Of a DNA stretch of 64,000 nucleotides, positions 756 to 30,261 are shown piece by piece. The notes under the pieces are model-generated. The model did not search any database. It was not told the DNA's origin and saw only the letters and a list, made by a program, of their open reading frames with translations. Both the position numbers and the translations under genes were made by a program. Location of the stretch: NCBI GenBank assembly GCA_031414535.1, contig JANNVQ010000029.1:96001-160000 (forward strand), read 5' to 3'. The number at the start of each line of letters is the position of its first letter. Within the stretch, counting starts at the first letter, position 1. Source of the stretch: Gemmatimonas sp. GTDB taxonomy: Bacteria > Gemmatimonadota > Gemmatimonadetes > Gemmatimonadales > Gemmatimonadaceae.

Positions 756-1598
756 CTAAGACTTGCTGACCGCGAGGTCGCCCGCCGAGGCGATGCGCGT
801 GTGGAGGTTGAACGTGGTCCCTCGCACGAGCACGTGCATCGTCAATCCCAGCATCGCCACGGGGTCGTCCGCGCCTGCCCGGTCCATGGAAGAGAACTTC
901 AGCTTTGAAGAGTCCACGATCGTGAGCGTCCCGCTGCCCTCTACTTCAACCGTTTGGTCGGGCGAGATGAACGCGGCCGTGTCCTCATCAATCCCGAGAC
1001 CGATTAGGAAGGGATTGAAGGCCAAGGCCGTGATCAGCCGTCCCAGCCGCCCGCGTTGCGTGAAGTGCTGATCAATCACCACGCGATTGGTGAGTCCAAG
1101 TCCGGGAGCGAGCGTCACAGAGCCTGCGTGCGGCGTGCGATTGTCATCGCCGAACGCAATCATGTGCTCGCTGAGGAAGCTCGCACCCGCGCTGGTGCCG
1201 GCGACGTGCCCGCCGTTCGCGTTGTGCTCGCGCAGGGCCTTGGCCACGGCGGTGCCACCCAAGGTGGTCGCGAGACGCATCTGGTTGCCGCCGGTGATGA
1301 ACACCCCATCACAGGCCTTGATGGCGGCCACACGACTCGGCTCGTCACCATCGCGGCGCGTATCGAAGTCCATCACTTCAACTTCGGCAGCCCCGAGATC
1401 CTTGAAGATGCTGCGGTAGCGATCGCCCGTGTCGGCCAGCTTCGAGGCCGTGGGAATCACCACGAGCTTGGCATCACGTCCGCCACAGAGCTGAACAAAG
1501 CGATCGAGGATGAGCGGATTGTTCTCCTTCTCCTCGCCACCGCCAATGGGGATGATCCATCCACGCGTCGCGCCGTCCGGCGTTTGGGACGGGCTCAC
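756..1598 (-). CDS. cphB: Cyanophycinase (peptidase S51)
   Basis: Motifs IIPIGGGE, IPTAS, FITGGNQ, AGTSAGA (catalytic Ser), IDQHFTQRGRLGRL and GIDEDT. Confidence 0.95.
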   Translation of the reverse strand: MSPSQTPDGATRGWIIPIGGGEEKENNPLILDRFVQLCGGRDAKLVVIPTASKLADTGDRYRSIFKDLGAAEVEVMDFDTRRDGDEPSRVAAIKACDGVFITGGNQMRLATTLGGTAVAKALREHNANGGHVAGTSAGASFLSEHMIAFGDDNRTPHAGSVTLAPGLGLTNRVVIDQHFTQRGRLGRLITALAFNPFLIGLGIDEDTAAFISPDQTVEVEGSGTLTIVDSSKLKFSSMDRAGADDPVAMLGLTMHVLVRGTTFNLHTRIASAGDLAVSKS

Positions 1599-2776
1599 GA
1601 GCGACTCAGGGAAGTGGCGGACTCAAACTGTCCGCCGACGATGTGCGCGCCGTTGCGCAGGTGCCAGCGACCCATGGCCATCACGTCTTGCACTCCTCCC
1701 TTGTCGTCGAGCACCACGAGGTCCGCGTCGGCACCGAGTACGATCTCACCCTTGCGGGCCAATCGCAGCAGCTGCGCTGTATTACTGGTGAATGCCGGCA
1801 ACGCACGTTCGAGCGGTACGCCCAGCTCTAGCAGGCGCCGCAGCGTAAATGCCAACGCCCCCGGTTGCCCAACATCCATCTGCGTCACGCGGCCGTCCGC
1901 ATCGAAGGTCGGCAGGCAGCCGCCACCATCCGAACTGATGGTCACACGCTCCGCCGGTGCGCCAGCATCAAGAAAGCGCATCAGCGCCGCTTCCGCGCTC
2001 CAGGCATCTTCGCCGTCAGCGACGGGAAACGCGGTGATGTCCACCCACGAGCCCTGTTTCGCGAGCGCGATGGCTTCTTCGAACAGCGCCTTGCGACGGT
2101 TCACATGCGTGGGATTGAACACCCGCGGCGGCAATTCCGAGCCGGCGAGCGCTTCTCGGATGGGCTCGAGTCCCCGCACTCCATCGCCCACGTGTAGATG
2201 CACGAGTCCCGCCTTGCCCGTCATCAAGCCGCCCACGTGCGCCTCGCTCGCGAGCCGCAGCAGTTCATCGCGCGTCGGCTGGCTCGAGCGATGGTCGGAG
2301 ATGGCGGTCTTCACGCCGATGATGCACTCGATGTGCGCGATGTCGCCGCGCACGCTGCCGGTGATGGTGACCGGAGGGATGTGATAGCCTGCCGTCCAAT
2401 TCCACGCCGACAGTCCCTGGGCACGAAGCCCGTAGACCGCCGTCACCAACTCGCGCGGATGCCGCGTGGCGTCGTCGGTGCCGAGCAATCCCACGACGCT
2501 GGTCACGCCGCCGCGTGTGAACTGCGAGAGCGCGAGCGGAGGAACCTTGGACTCTGCGCCCGACTCGCCGCCGCCGCCGGTGATGTGGACGTGCGGATCA
2601 ATCAGTCCCGGGATGACGCGCCGGCCGCCAAGGTCTGTGGTCGTGACGTTGAGACCCGAGGGGAGATCTGGGCGCGCGTTCCCCATCCAGACGATGCGAT
2701 CACCCGCCAGCAGGATGTGCTGGATGCCCCGTTTGGCGGGGGCGTAGATGTTGGCGTTGAGGAGCAAGGAAAGCAT
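1595..2776 (-). CDS. iadA: Isoaspartyl dipeptidase (beta-aspartyl peptidase, amidohydrolase)
   Basis: Motifs PGLIDPHVHITGGGGE, GLLGTD, GVKTAISDHRSS (carbamylated Lys), HLHVGDG, PTHVNR and SSDGGGCLP. Overlaps cphB by 4 nt. Confidence 0.95.
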   Translation of the reverse strand: MLSLLLNANIYAPAKRGIQHILLAGDRIVWMGNARPDLPSGLNVTTTDLGGRRVIPGLIDPHVHITGGGGESGAESKVPPLALSQFTRGGVTSVVGLLGTDDATRHPRELVTAVYGLRAQGLSAWNWTAGYHIPPVTITGSVRGDIAHIECIIGVKTAISDHRSSQPTRDELLRLASEAHVGGLMTGKAGLVHLHVGDGVRGLEPIREALAGSELPPRVFNPTHVNRRKALFEEAIALAKQGSWVDITAFPVADGEDAWSAEAALMRFLDAGAPAERVTISSDGGGCLPTFDADGRVTQMDVGQPGALAFTLRRLLELGVPLERALPAFTSNTAQLLRLARKGEIVLGADADLVVLDDKGGVQDVMAMGRWHLRNGAHIVGGQFESATSLSRS

Positions 2777-2794
2777 TGCAACAAAAGTAACTGG

Positions 2795-2877
2795 AAGAGC
2801 GAGGAGCGAAGAGCGACAACGGAAAAGCGAAGTAGTGAAGAGCGAGGGGAGAAGAACAGAAGGGAGGAAGGGGAAGA
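2795..2877. repeat. Left arm of an ~83-bp inverted repeat made of GAAGAGC-like heptamers
   Basis: AAGAGC GAGGAGC GAAGAGC GACAACG GAAAAGC GAAGTAGT GAAGAGC GAGGGGA GAAGAACA GAAGGGAG GAAGGGG AAGA; aligns by hand to the reverse complement of 3307-3388. Confidence 0.9.
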
Positions 2878-2882
2878 GTGAA

Positions 2883-3245
2883 TTAATGGCCGGTGGCGCG
2901 GCGGATGCATGTCACGCAGATGGCGATCAGCTCGTTGCATTCCGCGGCTAAGGCGCGTACTTCGGCGGGGCGGAAGCCGGCGCTCTCGGCCATTTGGAGC
3001 CAGGCCAGGGACTCGCGCAGTTCCTTTACACAGATCTTGAGCTTGTTCACATAGTCCCGCGTGGAGATTGCCTCCTTCGCCTCCGCGTAATTCGCCGCTG
3101 GAGACGTCGCCGAGCGGGCAAGCTGCCGGAAAATGTTCTCTAACGCGAAGTCTCGCGGCGCCCGCCGAATCAGCGCACAAGTCCGCCCCCCAAACAAGAC
3201 CAGCCGCTCCGCTAAAGGAACCCCTCTACGCCCATTATTGCTCAT
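2883..3245 (-). CDS. Four-helix-bundle protein (23S rRNA IVS protein / TIGR02436-like; Avd-related fold)
   Basis: MSNNGRRGVPLAERLVLFG...IFRQLARSATSPAANYAEAKEAISTRDYVNKLKICVKELRESLAWL matches the family pattern QLxRSxTSxxANxxEA...SxxDFxxKLxIxxKExxExxxWL. Start placed at ATG 3245 because the upstream extension in the track (to 3365) is translated repeat DNA. Confidence 0.9.
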   Translation of the reverse strand: MSNNGRRGVPLAERLVLFGGRTCALIRRAPRDFALENIFRQLARSATSPAANYAEAKEAISTRDYVNKLKICVKELRESLAWLQMAESAGFRPAEVRALAAECNELIAICVTCIRRATGH

Positions 3246-3306
3246 CCATGGAGTGTGCATCAACACGCGTAAATTCCATCGCCGAGCCATCCCCACTCGT
3301 TCCATT

Positions 3307-3388
3307 TCTTCCCCTTCATTCCTTCTTCCCTTCACCCCTCGCTCTTCAATACTTCGCTCTTCCATTTCGCTCTTCGCTCCTCGCTCTT
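3307..3388. repeat. Right arm of the inverted repeat around the four-helix-bundle gene
   Basis: Pyrimidine-rich GCTCTTC-type units. Reverse complement: AAGAGC GAGGAGC GAAGAGC GAAATG GAAGAGC GAAGTATT GAAGAGC GAGGGGT GAAGGGAA GAAGGAAT GAAGGGG AAGA. Confidence 0.9.
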
Positions 3389-3400
3389 TAGCTTTCGGCC

Positions 3401-4075
3401 ATGGTTAGCATCCTAGACATCATCGGCCCCGTCATGGTCGGTCCGTCCTCAAGCCACACGGCCGGCGCTTGCCGCCTCGGCCTGGTCGCACGCGACCTCG
3501 TGGCCGGCACGCCGGAGTCAGCGCTCATCGAGCTCCACGGCTCCTTCGCCCGCACCGGCGAAGGTCACGGCACCGACAAGGCCATCGTCGGCGGCCTCCT
3601 CGGCTTCCGCCCCGACGATGAACGCCTCCGCGATGCACTCGTCATCATGGAGAAGGAAGCGCTCCCTTGGCGCTTCGAGAAAACCACGCTTGGTGACGAG
3701 CCCGAGGTGCACCCCAACACCGTGCGCATCACCGTCACGCGTCAGCATCGTCATCACGTCATGCTCGGTGCCTCCCTCGGCGCCGGTCGCATCAAGGTCT
3801 CGCAGATTGACGGCTATCCGGTGGAAGTGGATGGCTCGCATCACACCATCGTGATGGTCGCCGAGGACGTGAAGGGCAGTGTGGCGCGCATCGCGACAAT
3901 GCTCAGCGAGGGTGGCGTGAACATCGCGACGCTGCGGCTCAGTAGAAAGCATCGCGGCGGTGACGCATTCATGGTGATTGAAGTGGACGAGCGGCCCGAA
4001 GACTCCGTGGGCGCTGCACTCAAGGAGCTGTCGTGGGTGAAGTGGGCGCACCGCATTGATAAGGTTGGTGGCTGA
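3401..4075 (+). CDS. sdaAB: L-serine dehydratase, iron-sulfur-dependent, beta subunit (with ACT domain)
   Basis: Motifs DIIGPVMVGPSSSHTAGA, HGSFARTGEGHGTD and HPNTV; C-terminal ACT domain. Confidence 0.95.
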   Translation: MVSILDIIGPVMVGPSSSHTAGACRLGLVARDLVAGTPESALIELHGSFARTGEGHGTDKAIVGGLLGFRPDDERLRDALVIMEKEALPWRFEKTTLGDEPEVHPNTVRITVTRQHRHHVMLGASLGAGRIKVSQIDGYPVEVDGSHHTIVMVAEDVKGSVARIATMLSEGGVNIATLRLSRKHRGGDAFMVIEVDERPEDSVGAALKELSWVKWAHRIDKVGG

Positions 4076-10389: not shown

Positions 10390-10474
10390 GAAGAGCGAAG
10401 AGCGACAAGGGAAGAGCGAAGAGGGGAAGAGCGAGAAGGAGAAGGGGGAAGGGTAGAAATAGAAGTGAGAAGAC
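10390..10474. repeat. Purine-rich GAAGAGC heptamer tract filling the Tyr-Gly tRNA spacer
   Basis: GAAGAGC GAAGAGC GACAAGG GAAGAGC GAAGAGGG GAAGAGC GAGAAGGA GAAGGGG GAAGGGT... Confidence 0.85.
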
Positions 10475-10556: not shown

Positions 10557-10599
10557 GAAGGGTGAAGGGTGAAGGGTGAAGGTTGAAGGTTGGAAGAGG
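10557..10599. repeat. GAAGG(G/T)T heptamer tandem repeat in the Gly-Thr tRNA spacer
   Basis: GAAGGGT x3, GAAGGTT x2, then G GAAGAGG. Confidence 0.88.
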
Positions 10600-10682: not shown

Positions 10683-10764
10683 GACGGATGACGGACGCTG
10701 AAAGGGCGCGCTGAGCTAAGCTCGGCGCGCCCTTTTCCGTTGCATCCGTCATCCGTCTTCCGTC
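10683..10764 (+). terminator. Intrinsic terminator of the tRNA operon, nested inside GACGGAT/ATCCGTC heptamer arms
   Basis: Stem AAAGGGCGCGCTGAGC-TAA-GCTCGGCGCGCCCTTTT (10701-10736), flanked by GACGGAT GACGGAC on the left and ATCCGTC ATCCGTC TTCCGTC on the right. Confidence 0.8.
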
Positions 10765-10822
10765 CTGCTTCGGGGCACCTTCGGGATTAGCCCGGCGCCG
10801 TAAGCCTCGGATGGCTCAGCAC

Positions 10823-11883: not shown

Positions 11884-11946
11884 GACGGAAGACGGATGAC
11901 GGATGCCGCACGCATCTGTTCAGCATCCGTCACCCGTCTGCCGTCC
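11883..11946. repeat. Heptamer-built hairpin directly after the nusG stop codon
   Basis: GGACGGAAGACGGATGACGGATGC ... GCATCCGTCACCCGTCTGCCGTCC, an imperfect 24-bp inverted repeat. Confidence 0.85.
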
Positions 11947-12121
11947 AGTTGAAAAGCAGATGCCTTTGCGCGAGGCAGGTGGACGAGGTCACAGTCTCCA
12001 CTGAGAAGCGCCCCGACGGAAAACCACGACGTCGTTAATCACATTGTGGGAGTCAGCGTGTAACGCCAGCCCGTCGCATCCGACGGTGCCCGTGCACGCT
12101 TCACGTTTTCCAGAGGGTAAG

Positions 12122-23275: not shown

Positions 23276-23397
23276 GACGGATGACGGATGACGGACGCCA
23301 AGGGCGGGAAGAGCGAGAGCTCGACCCGCCCTTGGCGCGTTCTTGGGTATCCGTCATCCGTCATCCGTCATGCGTCATGCGTCTTCCGTCTTCCGTC
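23276..23397 (+). terminator. Hairpin after rpoC, nested inside GACGGAT/ATCCGTC heptamer arms
   Basis: GACGGAT GACGGAT GACGGAC, then GCCAAGGGCGGG..GAGC-GAGA-GCTC..CCCGCCCTTGGC, then ATCCGTC x3, ATGCGTC x2, TTCCGTC x2. Confidence 0.8.
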
Positions 23398-28384: not shown

Positions 28385-29665
28385 ATGCCTGCCATCCCTC
28401 GCCGTGCTGTCTGGAGCTGGATCCTCTACGACCTCGCCAACACCATCTTCTCGATGGGCGTTGTCTCGCTGTACTTCTCGCTGTGGGTGCGCGATGCCGT
28501 GGGTGCCGAACGGGCAGACACGGTATACGGCATCATCACCGCAGTATCGATGGGCATTATCTTCGTGATCTCGCCCCTATTGGGAGCGATGACGGACCGT
28601 GCGGCCCGCCGGATGCCGTTCCTCATCACCAGTACCGTGATTTGCGTGGCGCTCACGGCGGTGCTCGCCCGCGGTGGCTATTGGGTCACGATGCTGGCCT
28701 TTGTGCTGGCTAATGCCGCCTACCAAGCCGGCCTGCAGTTCTACGATGCCTTGCTGCCAGAGGTGACCACCGAGGAGAACCGCGGTCGCATCTCGGGTAT
28801 GGGGGTGGGCATCGGCTACCTCGGCTCATACTTCGCCGTCGGCATTGGCTTCCTGCCGCAGTCATCGGACAAGCCGTTTCTGTTCACGGCCATCGCCATC
28901 GCGTTCTTGGCGCTGAGCATCCCCTGCTTCCTGTTCGTGAAGGAGCGCGGCAATCCCAATCCGCGTCCGGTCTTTGGACTCGCGGTCATCAAGGACAGCA
29001 CGAAGGAAACGTTGCGCACGTTGCGCAGCGGCGGCGAGTATCCGGGATTGATTCGATTCTTGGTGGGCCGCGTGTTCTACACGGACGCCATCAACACCGT
29101 GATCAGCATCATGTCCCTCTACACCGTGAATGTGGTGGTGCAGTCTGGCCTGCCCACGTCCGAGGGCGAAACGAAGGCACGTTTCATCATGCTCGCGGCC
29201 ATCTCCTTCGCCGTGATTGGTGGATTCGTGTGGGGCCATCTCGTTGATAAGCTCGGACCCAAGCGCACGCTTGACTACGTGCTCTGGCTCTGGGTCGCGA
29301 CGTTTCTCGGCGCCGCGTCCGTCGGTTTGTTGGGCCTCCCGTGGCAGACCTTGTTCTTGGTGGCGTCAATGGCCGGTGTAGCACTCGGCGGCATCTGGAG
29401 CGCGGATCGGCCACTCATGCTACGCCTGACGCCCCCGGATCGCATCGGCGAGTTCTATGGCCTGTACGGGATGGTGGGGCGGTTTAGCGCGATCACGGGC
29501 CCCGTGATATGGGCCTTCGTCGCTTGGCTCTGCATCGGCAAGCTGGGCATGTCGCCGGCCAAGGGTCAGGGTATCGGCGTCCTGGTGTTGCTGAGCTTCA
29601 TTTTTGTGGCGCGGGCGATTCTTGGGCCGGTGACGGATACGCCACGGGAATGGAAGAAGACGTGA
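28385..29665 (+). CDS. MFS transporter (UMF1/Atg22-like family)
   Basis: WSWILYDLAN, SPLLGAMTD, FYDALLP..RGRISGMG and GEFYGLY; about 12 TM helices. Confidence 0.88.
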   Translation: MPAIPRRAVWSWILYDLANTIFSMGVVSLYFSLWVRDAVGAERADTVYGIITAVSMGIIFVISPLLGAMTDRAARRMPFLITSTVICVALTAVLARGGYWVTMLAFVLANAAYQAGLQFYDALLPEVTTEENRGRISGMGVGIGYLGSYFAVGIGFLPQSSDKPFLFTAIAIAFLALSIPCFLFVKERGNPNPRPVFGLAVIKDSTKETLRTLRSGGEYPGLIRFLVGRVFYTDAINTVISIMSLYTVNVVVQSGLPTSEGETKARFIMLAAISFAVIGGFVWGHLVDKLGPKRTLDYVLWLWVATFLGAASVGLLGLPWQTLFLVASMAGVALGGIWSADRPLMLRLTPPDRIGEFYGLYGMVGRFSAITGPVIWAFVAWLCIGKLGMSPAKGQGIGVLVLLSFIFVARAILGPVTDTPREWKKT

Positions 29666-29723
29666 GAGGTAAGAGGTGAGACGTGAGAGCCTACCTCGCG
29701 TCACCTCTCATGTCTCATGTCTC
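29662..29723. repeat. Heptamer-built inverted repeat between convergent genes (possible bidirectional terminator)
   Basis: GTGAGAG GTAAGAG GTGAGAC GTGAGAG ... CTCGCGT CACCTCT CATGTCT CATGTCT CA. Confidence 0.75.
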
Positions 29724-29724
29724 A

Positions 29725-30261
29725 TTACGGTGCAATAACCTCATACCCCTGCGTCGCCAGAATCGCGTGCGCGGTGCCCGCCGTTGTCGCGACCTTCACA
29801 AAGGGCAATAGCTCGGCACGCGGCACGTTGCGGTTGATCAGGGCCTGACCGCAGACGATGATCTGCACGCCGGCCTCGTGGAGCGCGGTGAGCAGTGCGA
29901 TGCTGCCGTTGTCCGCGCCAGTGCGCGTCTTGTAGGCGGCGTTGTTCATGAGCGAGGGCGTTGCTGTGCCGTGCACGATGATGGCGAGCTTGACGTTGCT
30001 GCGCGAGACGCCGTTGGCGTCCATCAAGCGGAAGAAATTCGCCGGCGTCCGAAATCCATCAGCAATGCCGCTCGGCTGCTCAGGAGCGACCGTCACGTGC
30101 CACGCCATCTTATACACGAGGTCCCGTGGCGCCGCAAAATCCGGATCAGTGATGGCGGGCGTGCCGCCAATCTGGCGAATCAATGCTTCGCCGGTCTGCG
30201 CGGAGACTTGCAGGGGCGCGACGAGCAGCGCAGCGACGCAGAGCAGTTTGGTGCGAATCAT
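29725..30261 (-). CDS. Exported DsrE-family protein
   Basis: Signal peptide MIRTKLLCVAALLVAPLQVSA; AIIVHGTA and GVQIIVCGQAL motifs. Confidence 0.75.
   Translation of the reverse strand: MIRTKLLCVAALLVAPLQVSAQTGEALIRQIGGTPAITDPDFAAPRDLVYKMAWHVTVAPEQPSGIADGFRTPANFFRLMDANGVSRSNVKLAIIVHGTATPSLMNNAAYKTRTGADNGSIALLTALHEAGVQIIVCGQALINRNVPRAELLPFVKVATTAGTAHAILATQGYEVIAP

Follow-up and report, generated by a model that had tools for sequence, protein, structure and literature searches.

A four-helix-bundle gene between heptamer-built inverted arms, and its possible part in a family of dispersed hairpins in a Gemmatimonas genome

In the REPIN-RAYT system, one gene is flanked by inverted repeats, and hairpin copies without the gene, which match the flanks of the resident gene, occur scattered over the genome; the RAYT gene encodes a Y1 transposase. 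Another arrangement is described for Coxiella burnetii's intervening sequence (IVS), which has a 28-bp stem, with GACAGAT heptamers before the S23p ORF, and undergoes RNase III cleavage; the account of this IVS also cites the old idea of a mobile element with an ORF that aids its mobility (PMC4990558). Intergenic heptamers were described by Rehm et al. 2015 in Xanthomonas (GGGAATC) and Nostoc (GGGGAYT). Each Xanthomonas genome carries 70-75 convergent inverted heptamer pairs, with the G-rich strand just after stop codons, and the length and sequence of the arrays vary between close relatives (PMC4692102). MacGregor 2015 reported TAACTGA direct repeats in Beggiatoaceae and cyanobacteria, which are plentiful intergenic heptamer arrays of unexplained origin (PMC4679880). 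The S23p ORF belongs to PF05635/TIGR02436, a very widespread family of small proteins, related to Avd, whose function is unexplained. In the main text of PMC4692102 the terms "helix bundle", "23S" and "intervening sequence" have no occurrence, nor has a four-helix-bundle gene in that of PMC4679880; our searches of main texts yielded no paper that links the PF05635 family to heptamer repeats.

The window analyzed in this work is a stretch of 64,000 nt (G000:C29:96001-160000) from a Gemmatimonas genome of 3.70 Mb and 64% G+C, named G000 below. It contains a cassette of 594 bp (2795-3388), flanked by iadA (1595-2776, minus strand) and sdaAB (3401-4075, plus strand), and not located in a 23S rRNA helix as the IVS elements are. 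Arms and hairpins are given here without strand. The left arm (2795-2877), purine-rich on the plus strand and composed of GAAGAGC-type heptamers, begins at a distance of 18 nt from the start codon of iadA (2776); the right arm (3307-3388) is its reverse complement at 73 of 83 positions. Two inverted-repeat blocks, 2818-2877/3307-3366 (60 nt, 85% complementary) and 2795-2816/3367-3388 (22 nt, 100%), are fused by one gap into these 83-nt arms, whose outer 22 nt are identical. TRF detected a period of 7 on both sides, at 2794-2845 (7.3 copies, unit GAAGAGC) and at 3339-3388 (7.1 copies). The first-pass annotation had considered the arms a true inverted repeat, in which irregular variant units keep the same order on both sides; our alignment agrees, and the same order is also found in dispersed copies of the arm.

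The gene (2883-3245, minus strand, stop codon 2883-2885) encodes 120 aa from M41, and a spacer of 61 nt (3246-3306, minus strand) separates its start codon from the right arm. As in IVS elements, terminal complementary sequences form a stem and an S23p-family ORF occupies the loop; the design called "ORF in a long stem", known from the ORF-bearing 23S rRNA IVS and proposed earlier for this locus, is thus found here between protein genes. The flank-alignment score of the cassette is 113-115, and 300 random intervals of the same size from the genome gave a 99th percentile of 30 and a maximum of 36. A chance juxtaposition of gene and arms was rejected on these control scores and on shuffles. One scan of the cassette for promoters and terminators returned a single promoter-like match (3263 to 3234), which is doubtful and overlaps the start codon, and no terminator.

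The ORF 2883-3365 (minus strand) matches PF05635 with 41.7 bits (cut-off 33.8), and its portion from M41 (2886-3245) matches TIGR02436 with 69.8 bits (cut-off 24). The likely start is near 3245, since orthologues begin there, though the listed ORF extends to 3365. The predicted model (pLDDT 92.3) presents four helices, at residues 11-27, 33-57, 62-88 and 93-118. In Foldseek it resembles 2rld (TM 0.79-0.87), which was also matched in a profile search at 1.2e-9, and 2gsc (TM 0.79-0.86). Avd (4dwl, 8ube) is reached with TM 0.72-0.78 at a sequence identity of about 15%, in keeping with the structural relation given in the first-pass annotation. The structures 2rld and 2gsc have five chains each, and a homopentameric ring was stated for the S23p family by Lin et al. 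2006, as quoted in PMC4990558. By likeness to 2gsc, 2rld and Avd, the protein would form a basic pentameric ring; it is predicted to recognize its cognate heptamer array, and such a basic helical-bundle protein would be the likely array-binding factor. The protein is under purifying selection, with dN/dS of 0.13-0.33 in 21 of 21 pairs (dS 0.5-2.6).

Folding of both strands, which had been suggested as a check, gave structures far better than shuffles (z of -11.8 for the minus and -11.2 for the plus strand). The minus-strand RNA fold, of -316 kcal/mol, would fit a module that acts at the RNA level, where the arms pair in transcripts as an RNase III-type stem, the hairpins serve as transcript-boundary or mRNA-stabilizing elements and the protein binds the stems. 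We judge this alternative unlikely, although it could coexist with a DNA-level reading. It has in its favor the architecture shared with the RNase III-excised intervening sequences of Coxiella and Leptospira (PMC4990558) and the Avd-like fold, Avd being part of an RNA-protein complex (8ube). The substitutions in the arms argue the other way. Selection for an RNA stem on the ORF-sense strand had been read from four of five transitions forming G-U pairs on the minus strand, a count that is right for the 83-nt arms; over 109 alignment columns of the same cassette the G-U-compatible transitions are 5 versus 3, which has no significance alone. When the tally was taken over the 42 of 46 genus cassettes with an arm score of at least 30, it gave 45 sense versus 43 antisense G-U-compatible transitions, with 12 cassettes leaning one way and 11 the other, and the 100 transversion mismatches exceeded the transitions. 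On the gene-sense strand G-U is thus not above A-C, and the claim of selection on that strand is not sustained.

The gene sdaAB was located in 23 of the 41 relatives. Directly upstream of it, G007, G012 and G018 present a four-helix-bundle gene of 70-73% identity between long complementary arms (81/100, 77/85 and 39/46 matches, respectively), and a cassette occupies the same place in G044 and G045, that is, in five congeners besides G000. In G007, G018 and G045 the cassette lies between uvrA and sdaAB, and iadA is the left neighbor in G000 only. The four-helix-bundle gene of G045 is antisense to both of its neighbors, uvrA and sdaAB, an orientation that speaks against the RNA-level module. Empty-site alleles, which the first-pass annotation had recommended looking for, occur in congeners: in L015, L021, L022 and L023 the uvrA stop directly meets a TTAGCTT box. 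Gene and arms behave as a single unit that congeners either have or lack upstream of sdaAB. Comparison by eye of filled with empty sites, at both sdaAB and nusG, showed strongly diverged flanks and no visible target-site duplication.

The TTAGCTT box of the window (3388-3394, plus strand, read by eye) lies 6 nt 5' of the sdaAB ATG (3401). Congeners keep it whether or not they have the cassette, and, by eye, it marks the right-hand limit of the insertion. The box is found 6-7 nt 5' of the sdaAB ATG in nearly all congeners (window 3388-3401, loci L004-L024), leaves no space for a Shine-Dalgarno sequence and resembles a -10 element, as for a leaderless mRNA; the uvrA stop codon of L015 falls within the box. 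On the other side of the cassette, a contig about 88% alike, from another sample, covers window positions 2397-3194, with iadA and the left part of the cassette, so the junction between them is present in a related strain too. Joints in metagenome contigs that skip 455-519 nt between the arms were considered as an empty allele and discarded; they are most simply gene-less copies from elsewhere.

Within cassettes, the complementarity of the two arms is 0.82-0.98 (mean 0.905), versus a mean same-arm identity between species of 0.79, a value inflated by low complexity. The inner motifs are species-specific and common only to both arms of each cassette. As the arms are complementary within cassettes yet divergent between species, with motifs shared by both arms, they undergo concerted evolution, and the co-variation of arms that the earlier reading called for is observed. 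In G018, the gene (L012 2284-2625) has a stop 8 codons before the usual end and arms of 41-46 nt; this cassette copy may be decaying.

The arms of the cassette belong to a larger set of repeats. The G000 genome has 475 period-7 TRF rows, whose main unit kinds are ACGGATG (240) with AAGACGG (46), and AAGAGCG (35) with AGCGAGG (8). The 83-nt cassette arm matches 42 places in the genome over its full length, with 77-90% identity; two of these are the cassette's own arms, and the 40 others correspond to about 20 gene-less hairpins. Fifteen of these hairpins were folded; they are 154-227 nt long and consist of two arms of some 80 nt joined by a very small loop, and the position of the gene in the cassette is exactly that of the loop in the gene-less hairpins. 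Non-periodic variant units common to hairpins and cassette arms indicate copies of one element and not independent microsatellites. No copy contains a gene remnant, so that derivation by deletion is deduced solely from the distribution. The right arm of the cassette is the nearest to the family consensus (95.1%, rank 1 of 31; left arm 90.2%) in a comparison biased by the use of the cassette's own arm as the query with which arms were gathered. MITE-like and REPIN-RAYT systems are marked by palindromic copies, scattered and without the gene, that share homology with a single gene's flanks, a feature present here as well; the genome has no match to PF01797 (Y1/RAYT transposase), and the gene between the arms is PF05635. 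The four-helix-bundle gene is the likely parent of the GAAGAGC-type hairpin family.

Among local array pairs of the genome, 88 are purine-then-pyrimidine and 1 has the opposite order, in orientation classes that are rough, and one quarter of the local pairs begin at most 2 nt from a stop codon; the ORF-based gene calls cover 43% of the genome, and such distances are lower-quartile figures. The genome thus presents what Rehm et al. 2015 described for heptamer repeats: period-7 intergenic arrays, convergent pairs and proximity to stop codons. Hairpins that adjoin stop codons and lengthen terminator stems would also suit the RNA-level module, and a purine arm that is 5' on either strand is a pattern that a single-strand constraint would preserve. 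Three further arrays of the window belong to the types discussed here: a GAAGAGC-type array, purine-rich only, between tRNA genes (10390-10473, plus strand; 85% to the cassette arm over 54 nt); GACGGAT arms around an intrinsic-terminator-like hairpin, 3' of a tRNA (10683-10765); and a GACGGAT hairpin (11884-11942) whose first base is the last base of the nusG stop codon. Arrays of other units in the window are (GAAGGGT)n between tRNA genes (10557-10589), GACGGAT/ATCCGTC (23276-23397) and AGAGGTG/TCTCATG (29658-29725).

The genome has two PF05635 genes, both between arms. The second (C27, 131 aa) has arms of 27 nt, 96% complementary, built from the second heptamer family, GACGGAT, so the inspection of other TIGR02436/PF05635 flanks proposed in the first-pass annotation yielded a paralogue with heptamer arms. 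Both genes are flanked by solitary purine-then-pyrimidine arrays, with a distance of 545 nt in one case and 547 nt in the other. Genome-wide, no more than four purine-then-pyrimidine pairs have a spacing of 250-700 nt, and two of them contain the PF05635 genes; from the classification of solitary arrays only this spacing list was used, some local hairpins being mis-assigned in its classes. The remaining two mid-range pairs contain a SelW-like gene and recX. These two genes lie in GACGGAT arms (recX in G000:C32:3828-4566, the SelW-like gene in G000:C10:57782-58099), and their start codons are inside the purine array, in the last GACGGATG unit. Heptamer arms in the genome also enclose tRNAs and terminators. 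The paralogue has a bidirectional terminator-like hairpin within its arms (L001 1360-1394), so its mRNA would probably stop before the distal arm; here, and at 10683-10765, the distal arm may stay untranscribed, which weighs against pairing of the arms in RNA.

The association extends to the genus. PF05635 was found in 34 of the 41 genomes. Among the 30 best loci, 26 score at least 30 and 17 surpass the highest control score (36); a purine-rich left arm is found in 28, regardless of the gene strand, with units that vary among genomes. Of the further, lower-scoring PF05635 genes, the 12 retrieved all have arms (scores 31-184), and in total 42 of the 46 PF05635 genes of the genus are placed between purine-left, pyrimidine-right inverted arms. 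The genes group into classes, and every class has a particular arm type that is conserved along with the gene; the arms of the class of the window gene always begin GAGGAGCGAGGAGCGA-like. A wider sample comprised 67 relatives of this class from several phyla, including Gemmatimonadota, Chloroflexota, Planctomycetota, Verrucomicrobiota, Beggiatoaceae and Desulfobacterota, 62 of them with enough flank. From these, 48 score at least 30, 38 of the 48 with a period of 7, and 54 of 61 relatives outscore all 20 shuffles.

Dispersed copies follow the gene in several genomes. The arm of G000 has 42 matches in its own genome and 0-2 in four congeners; that of G044 has 38 in G044 and that of G012 has 20 in G012, and for these three arms the best and the full-length matches are always within the own genome. 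Such species-specific arms, common to a cassette and its dispersed copies, would require DNA-level copying even if the RNA-level module were true. The arm of G007 has no gene-less copies in G007, where it matches its own two arms only; elsewhere it has one weak partial match each in G000 and G004. Counts of dimer patterns, on both strands of the 41 genomes, gave for GACGGAT (up to one mismatch allowed) 581 in G000, 366 in G023, 353 in G017 and 76 in G004; for GAGACKT 398 in G012, 252 in G004, 239 in G023 and 73 in G017, with 11 in G000; and for RAGATGT 100 in G045, 79 in G053, 69 in G049 and 65 in G010. A best gene with GAGACKT arms occurs in just those four genomes that have at least 73 GAGACKT matches.

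The correspondence has exceptions. GACGGAT arms were predicted on the second PF05635 genes of G017 and G023, and this failed: despite abundant GACGGAT arrays, the PF05635 genes of these genomes have GAGACKT, GGGAGAG or GAGGAGC arms. G051, which is 98% complete and has no PF05635 match, still has, in 160 kb, two or more heptamer arrays that are real, and G008, in which the gene is present, has one or two in 120 kb. The density of period-7 arrays, per 100 kb, is 3.1 in G051, 9.2 in G048 and 1.7 in G008, part of these being GC-rich noise. Arrays without a matching gene in G017, G023 and G051 are what would be seen if there were no functional link, that is, if replication slippage or conversion by the host made and homogenized hairpins at structure-prone intergenic sites and four-helix-bundle genes merely inserted or persisted in the loops. 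The unrelated genes, tRNAs and terminators inside arms fit this explanation, as does the slippage hypothesis for heptamers quoted in Rehm et al. 2015 (PMC4692102). We consider it very unlikely. It does not account for the placement of genes between arms in 42 of 46 cases within the genus and in 48 of 62 from the wider sample of phyla, for the only two PF05635 genes of the genome occupying two of its four mid-range arm pairs, for an arm type proper to each gene class and conserved with it, or for the gain or loss of the cassette as a unit.

Orthologous sites are informative about how the arrays change. At the nusG site, inspected by eye in 27 genomes, a purine-then-pyrimidine hairpin stands straight after the stop codon in 16; four others show just a short purine array, and six lack both. 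No fewer than eight units are in use there, such as GACGGAT, GAGACKT, GAAGGMT, TCAGGTR and GAGATGK, and the unit agrees with the arms of the best PF05635 gene of the same genome in 7 of 12 assessable cases and disagrees in 5. Around a conserved terminator between a tRNA gene and rpmG, the surrounding units likewise differ among genomes, and G023 has a decayed GACGGAT pair at this site. Orthologous sites written in different heptamers indicate that the sites are reused and the heptamer is replaced. In the tRNA-rpmG spacer of G006 (L152), about nine GCAGTTG/GTAGTTG heptamers lie beside a second arm pair around the terminator, so that two array types are present. Downstream of nusG, a strongly conserved leader of about 150 nt precedes rplK (window 11960-12118, L136-L165) and reads GATGCCCTTGCGCGGGGCAG...GTGGGAGTCAGCG...; this is probably the leader of the L11 operon, and hairpins insert just 5' of it.

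The Avd-like fold (TM 0.72-0.78) raises also the idea of a retro-element-like origin, in which the arrays would be synthesized on a template in a telomerase-like manner, by a reverse transcriptase that has the Avd-like protein for its cofactor. A short fixed unit and a purine-rich 5' arm on both strands would fit the extension of two facing 3' ends, an argument made by inference only. This origin is highly improbable. A diversity-generating retroelement would have its reverse transcriptase next to the gene, with template and variable repeats; the sole reverse transcriptase of the genome is retron-like, lies on another contig (C9) beside an HTH gene and falls below all family cut-offs. In addition, the two arms and the dispersed copies share one order of the variant units, which fits copying of the whole element and not independent synthesis. 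That reverse transcriptase has 288 aa, resembles retron-St85 (G000:C9:45871-46395; L135 1288-2154, minus strand) and neighbors a 100-aa HTH-like gene; it is probably a defense retron, and it has no link to the heptamer system.

The reading that we prefer, tentatively and at somewhat less than an even chance, is that a transposase-less cassette of gene plus arms seeds and maintains the dispersed hairpin family at the DNA level. A transposase-less cassette tied to heptamer arms was among the possibilities offered at the outset, and it stands as the best reading. The cassette would be the one gene-bearing copy among about 20 long hairpin repeats. The four-helix-bundle protein, predicted to bind the 7-base arms, would likely help in their copying or upkeep at the DNA level; host replication or repair enzymes, together with the protein, would install an arm pair, accompanied by the gene or not, around terminators and immediately after stop codons, and conversion would homogenize existing arrays. 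Gene-less hairpins would then be non-autonomous derivatives of the cassette, and the 23S rRNA intervening sequences would be the same cassette landed in rRNA.

A wider version of this proposal seems possible, if somewhat doubtful: PF05635 proteins may be sequence-specific writers and keepers of bacterial heptamer repeats, each allele setting its own 7-base unit and, without a transposase of its own, driving the installation and overwriting of purine-then-pyrimidine hairpins at stop codons and terminators genome-wide, the ORF-bearing 23S IVS being a cassette landed in rRNA. If true, it would join the excess of 7-base repeats in bacteria, the origin of the ORF-bearing 23S IVS and the function of PF05635/TIGR02436. 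A gene tied to cognate dispersed repeats without a recognizable transposase, and sites rewritten in species-specific units, would together point to an undescribed way of propagating DNA repeats. The hairpins are also relevant for annotation, as they are found at housekeeping genes, by stop codons, terminators and promoters.

Compared with the described systems, the cassette resembles REPIN-RAYT in having a single gene with inverted flanks that match dispersed gene-less hairpins, and differs from it in that the gene encodes a 120-aa helical bundle without a known catalytic site. The protein shares the four-helix-bundle fold with the nucleic-acid-associated Avd (PDB 4dwl, 8ube), but its gene has neither an adjacent reverse transcriptase nor a template/variable repeat pair. 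Relatives of the window gene were found in Thioploca, Parabeggiatoa and Marithrix; the TAACTGA arrays are intergenic heptamers like those of G000 and, unlike them, mostly direct and not inverted (PMC4679880). The 23S IVS of Coxiella and Leptospira have an ORF of the same family in the loop of a terminal complementary stem, and in Coxiella heptamers also adjoin the ORF and the IVS is suspected to be selfish or mobile (PMC4990558). In contrast to the IVS, the cassette of the window lies between protein genes, has a stem of 83 bp instead of 28 bp and is accompanied by about 20 gene-less copies; purifying selection acts on its gene, and in Coxiella the ORF is in decay (PMC4990558). The arrays of G000 share with those of Rehm et al. 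2015 the intergenic 7-nt units, the convergent pairs and the placement at stop codons (PMC4692102). The main text of that study names no associated gene, whereas the arrays of G000 are tied to PF05635 cassettes.
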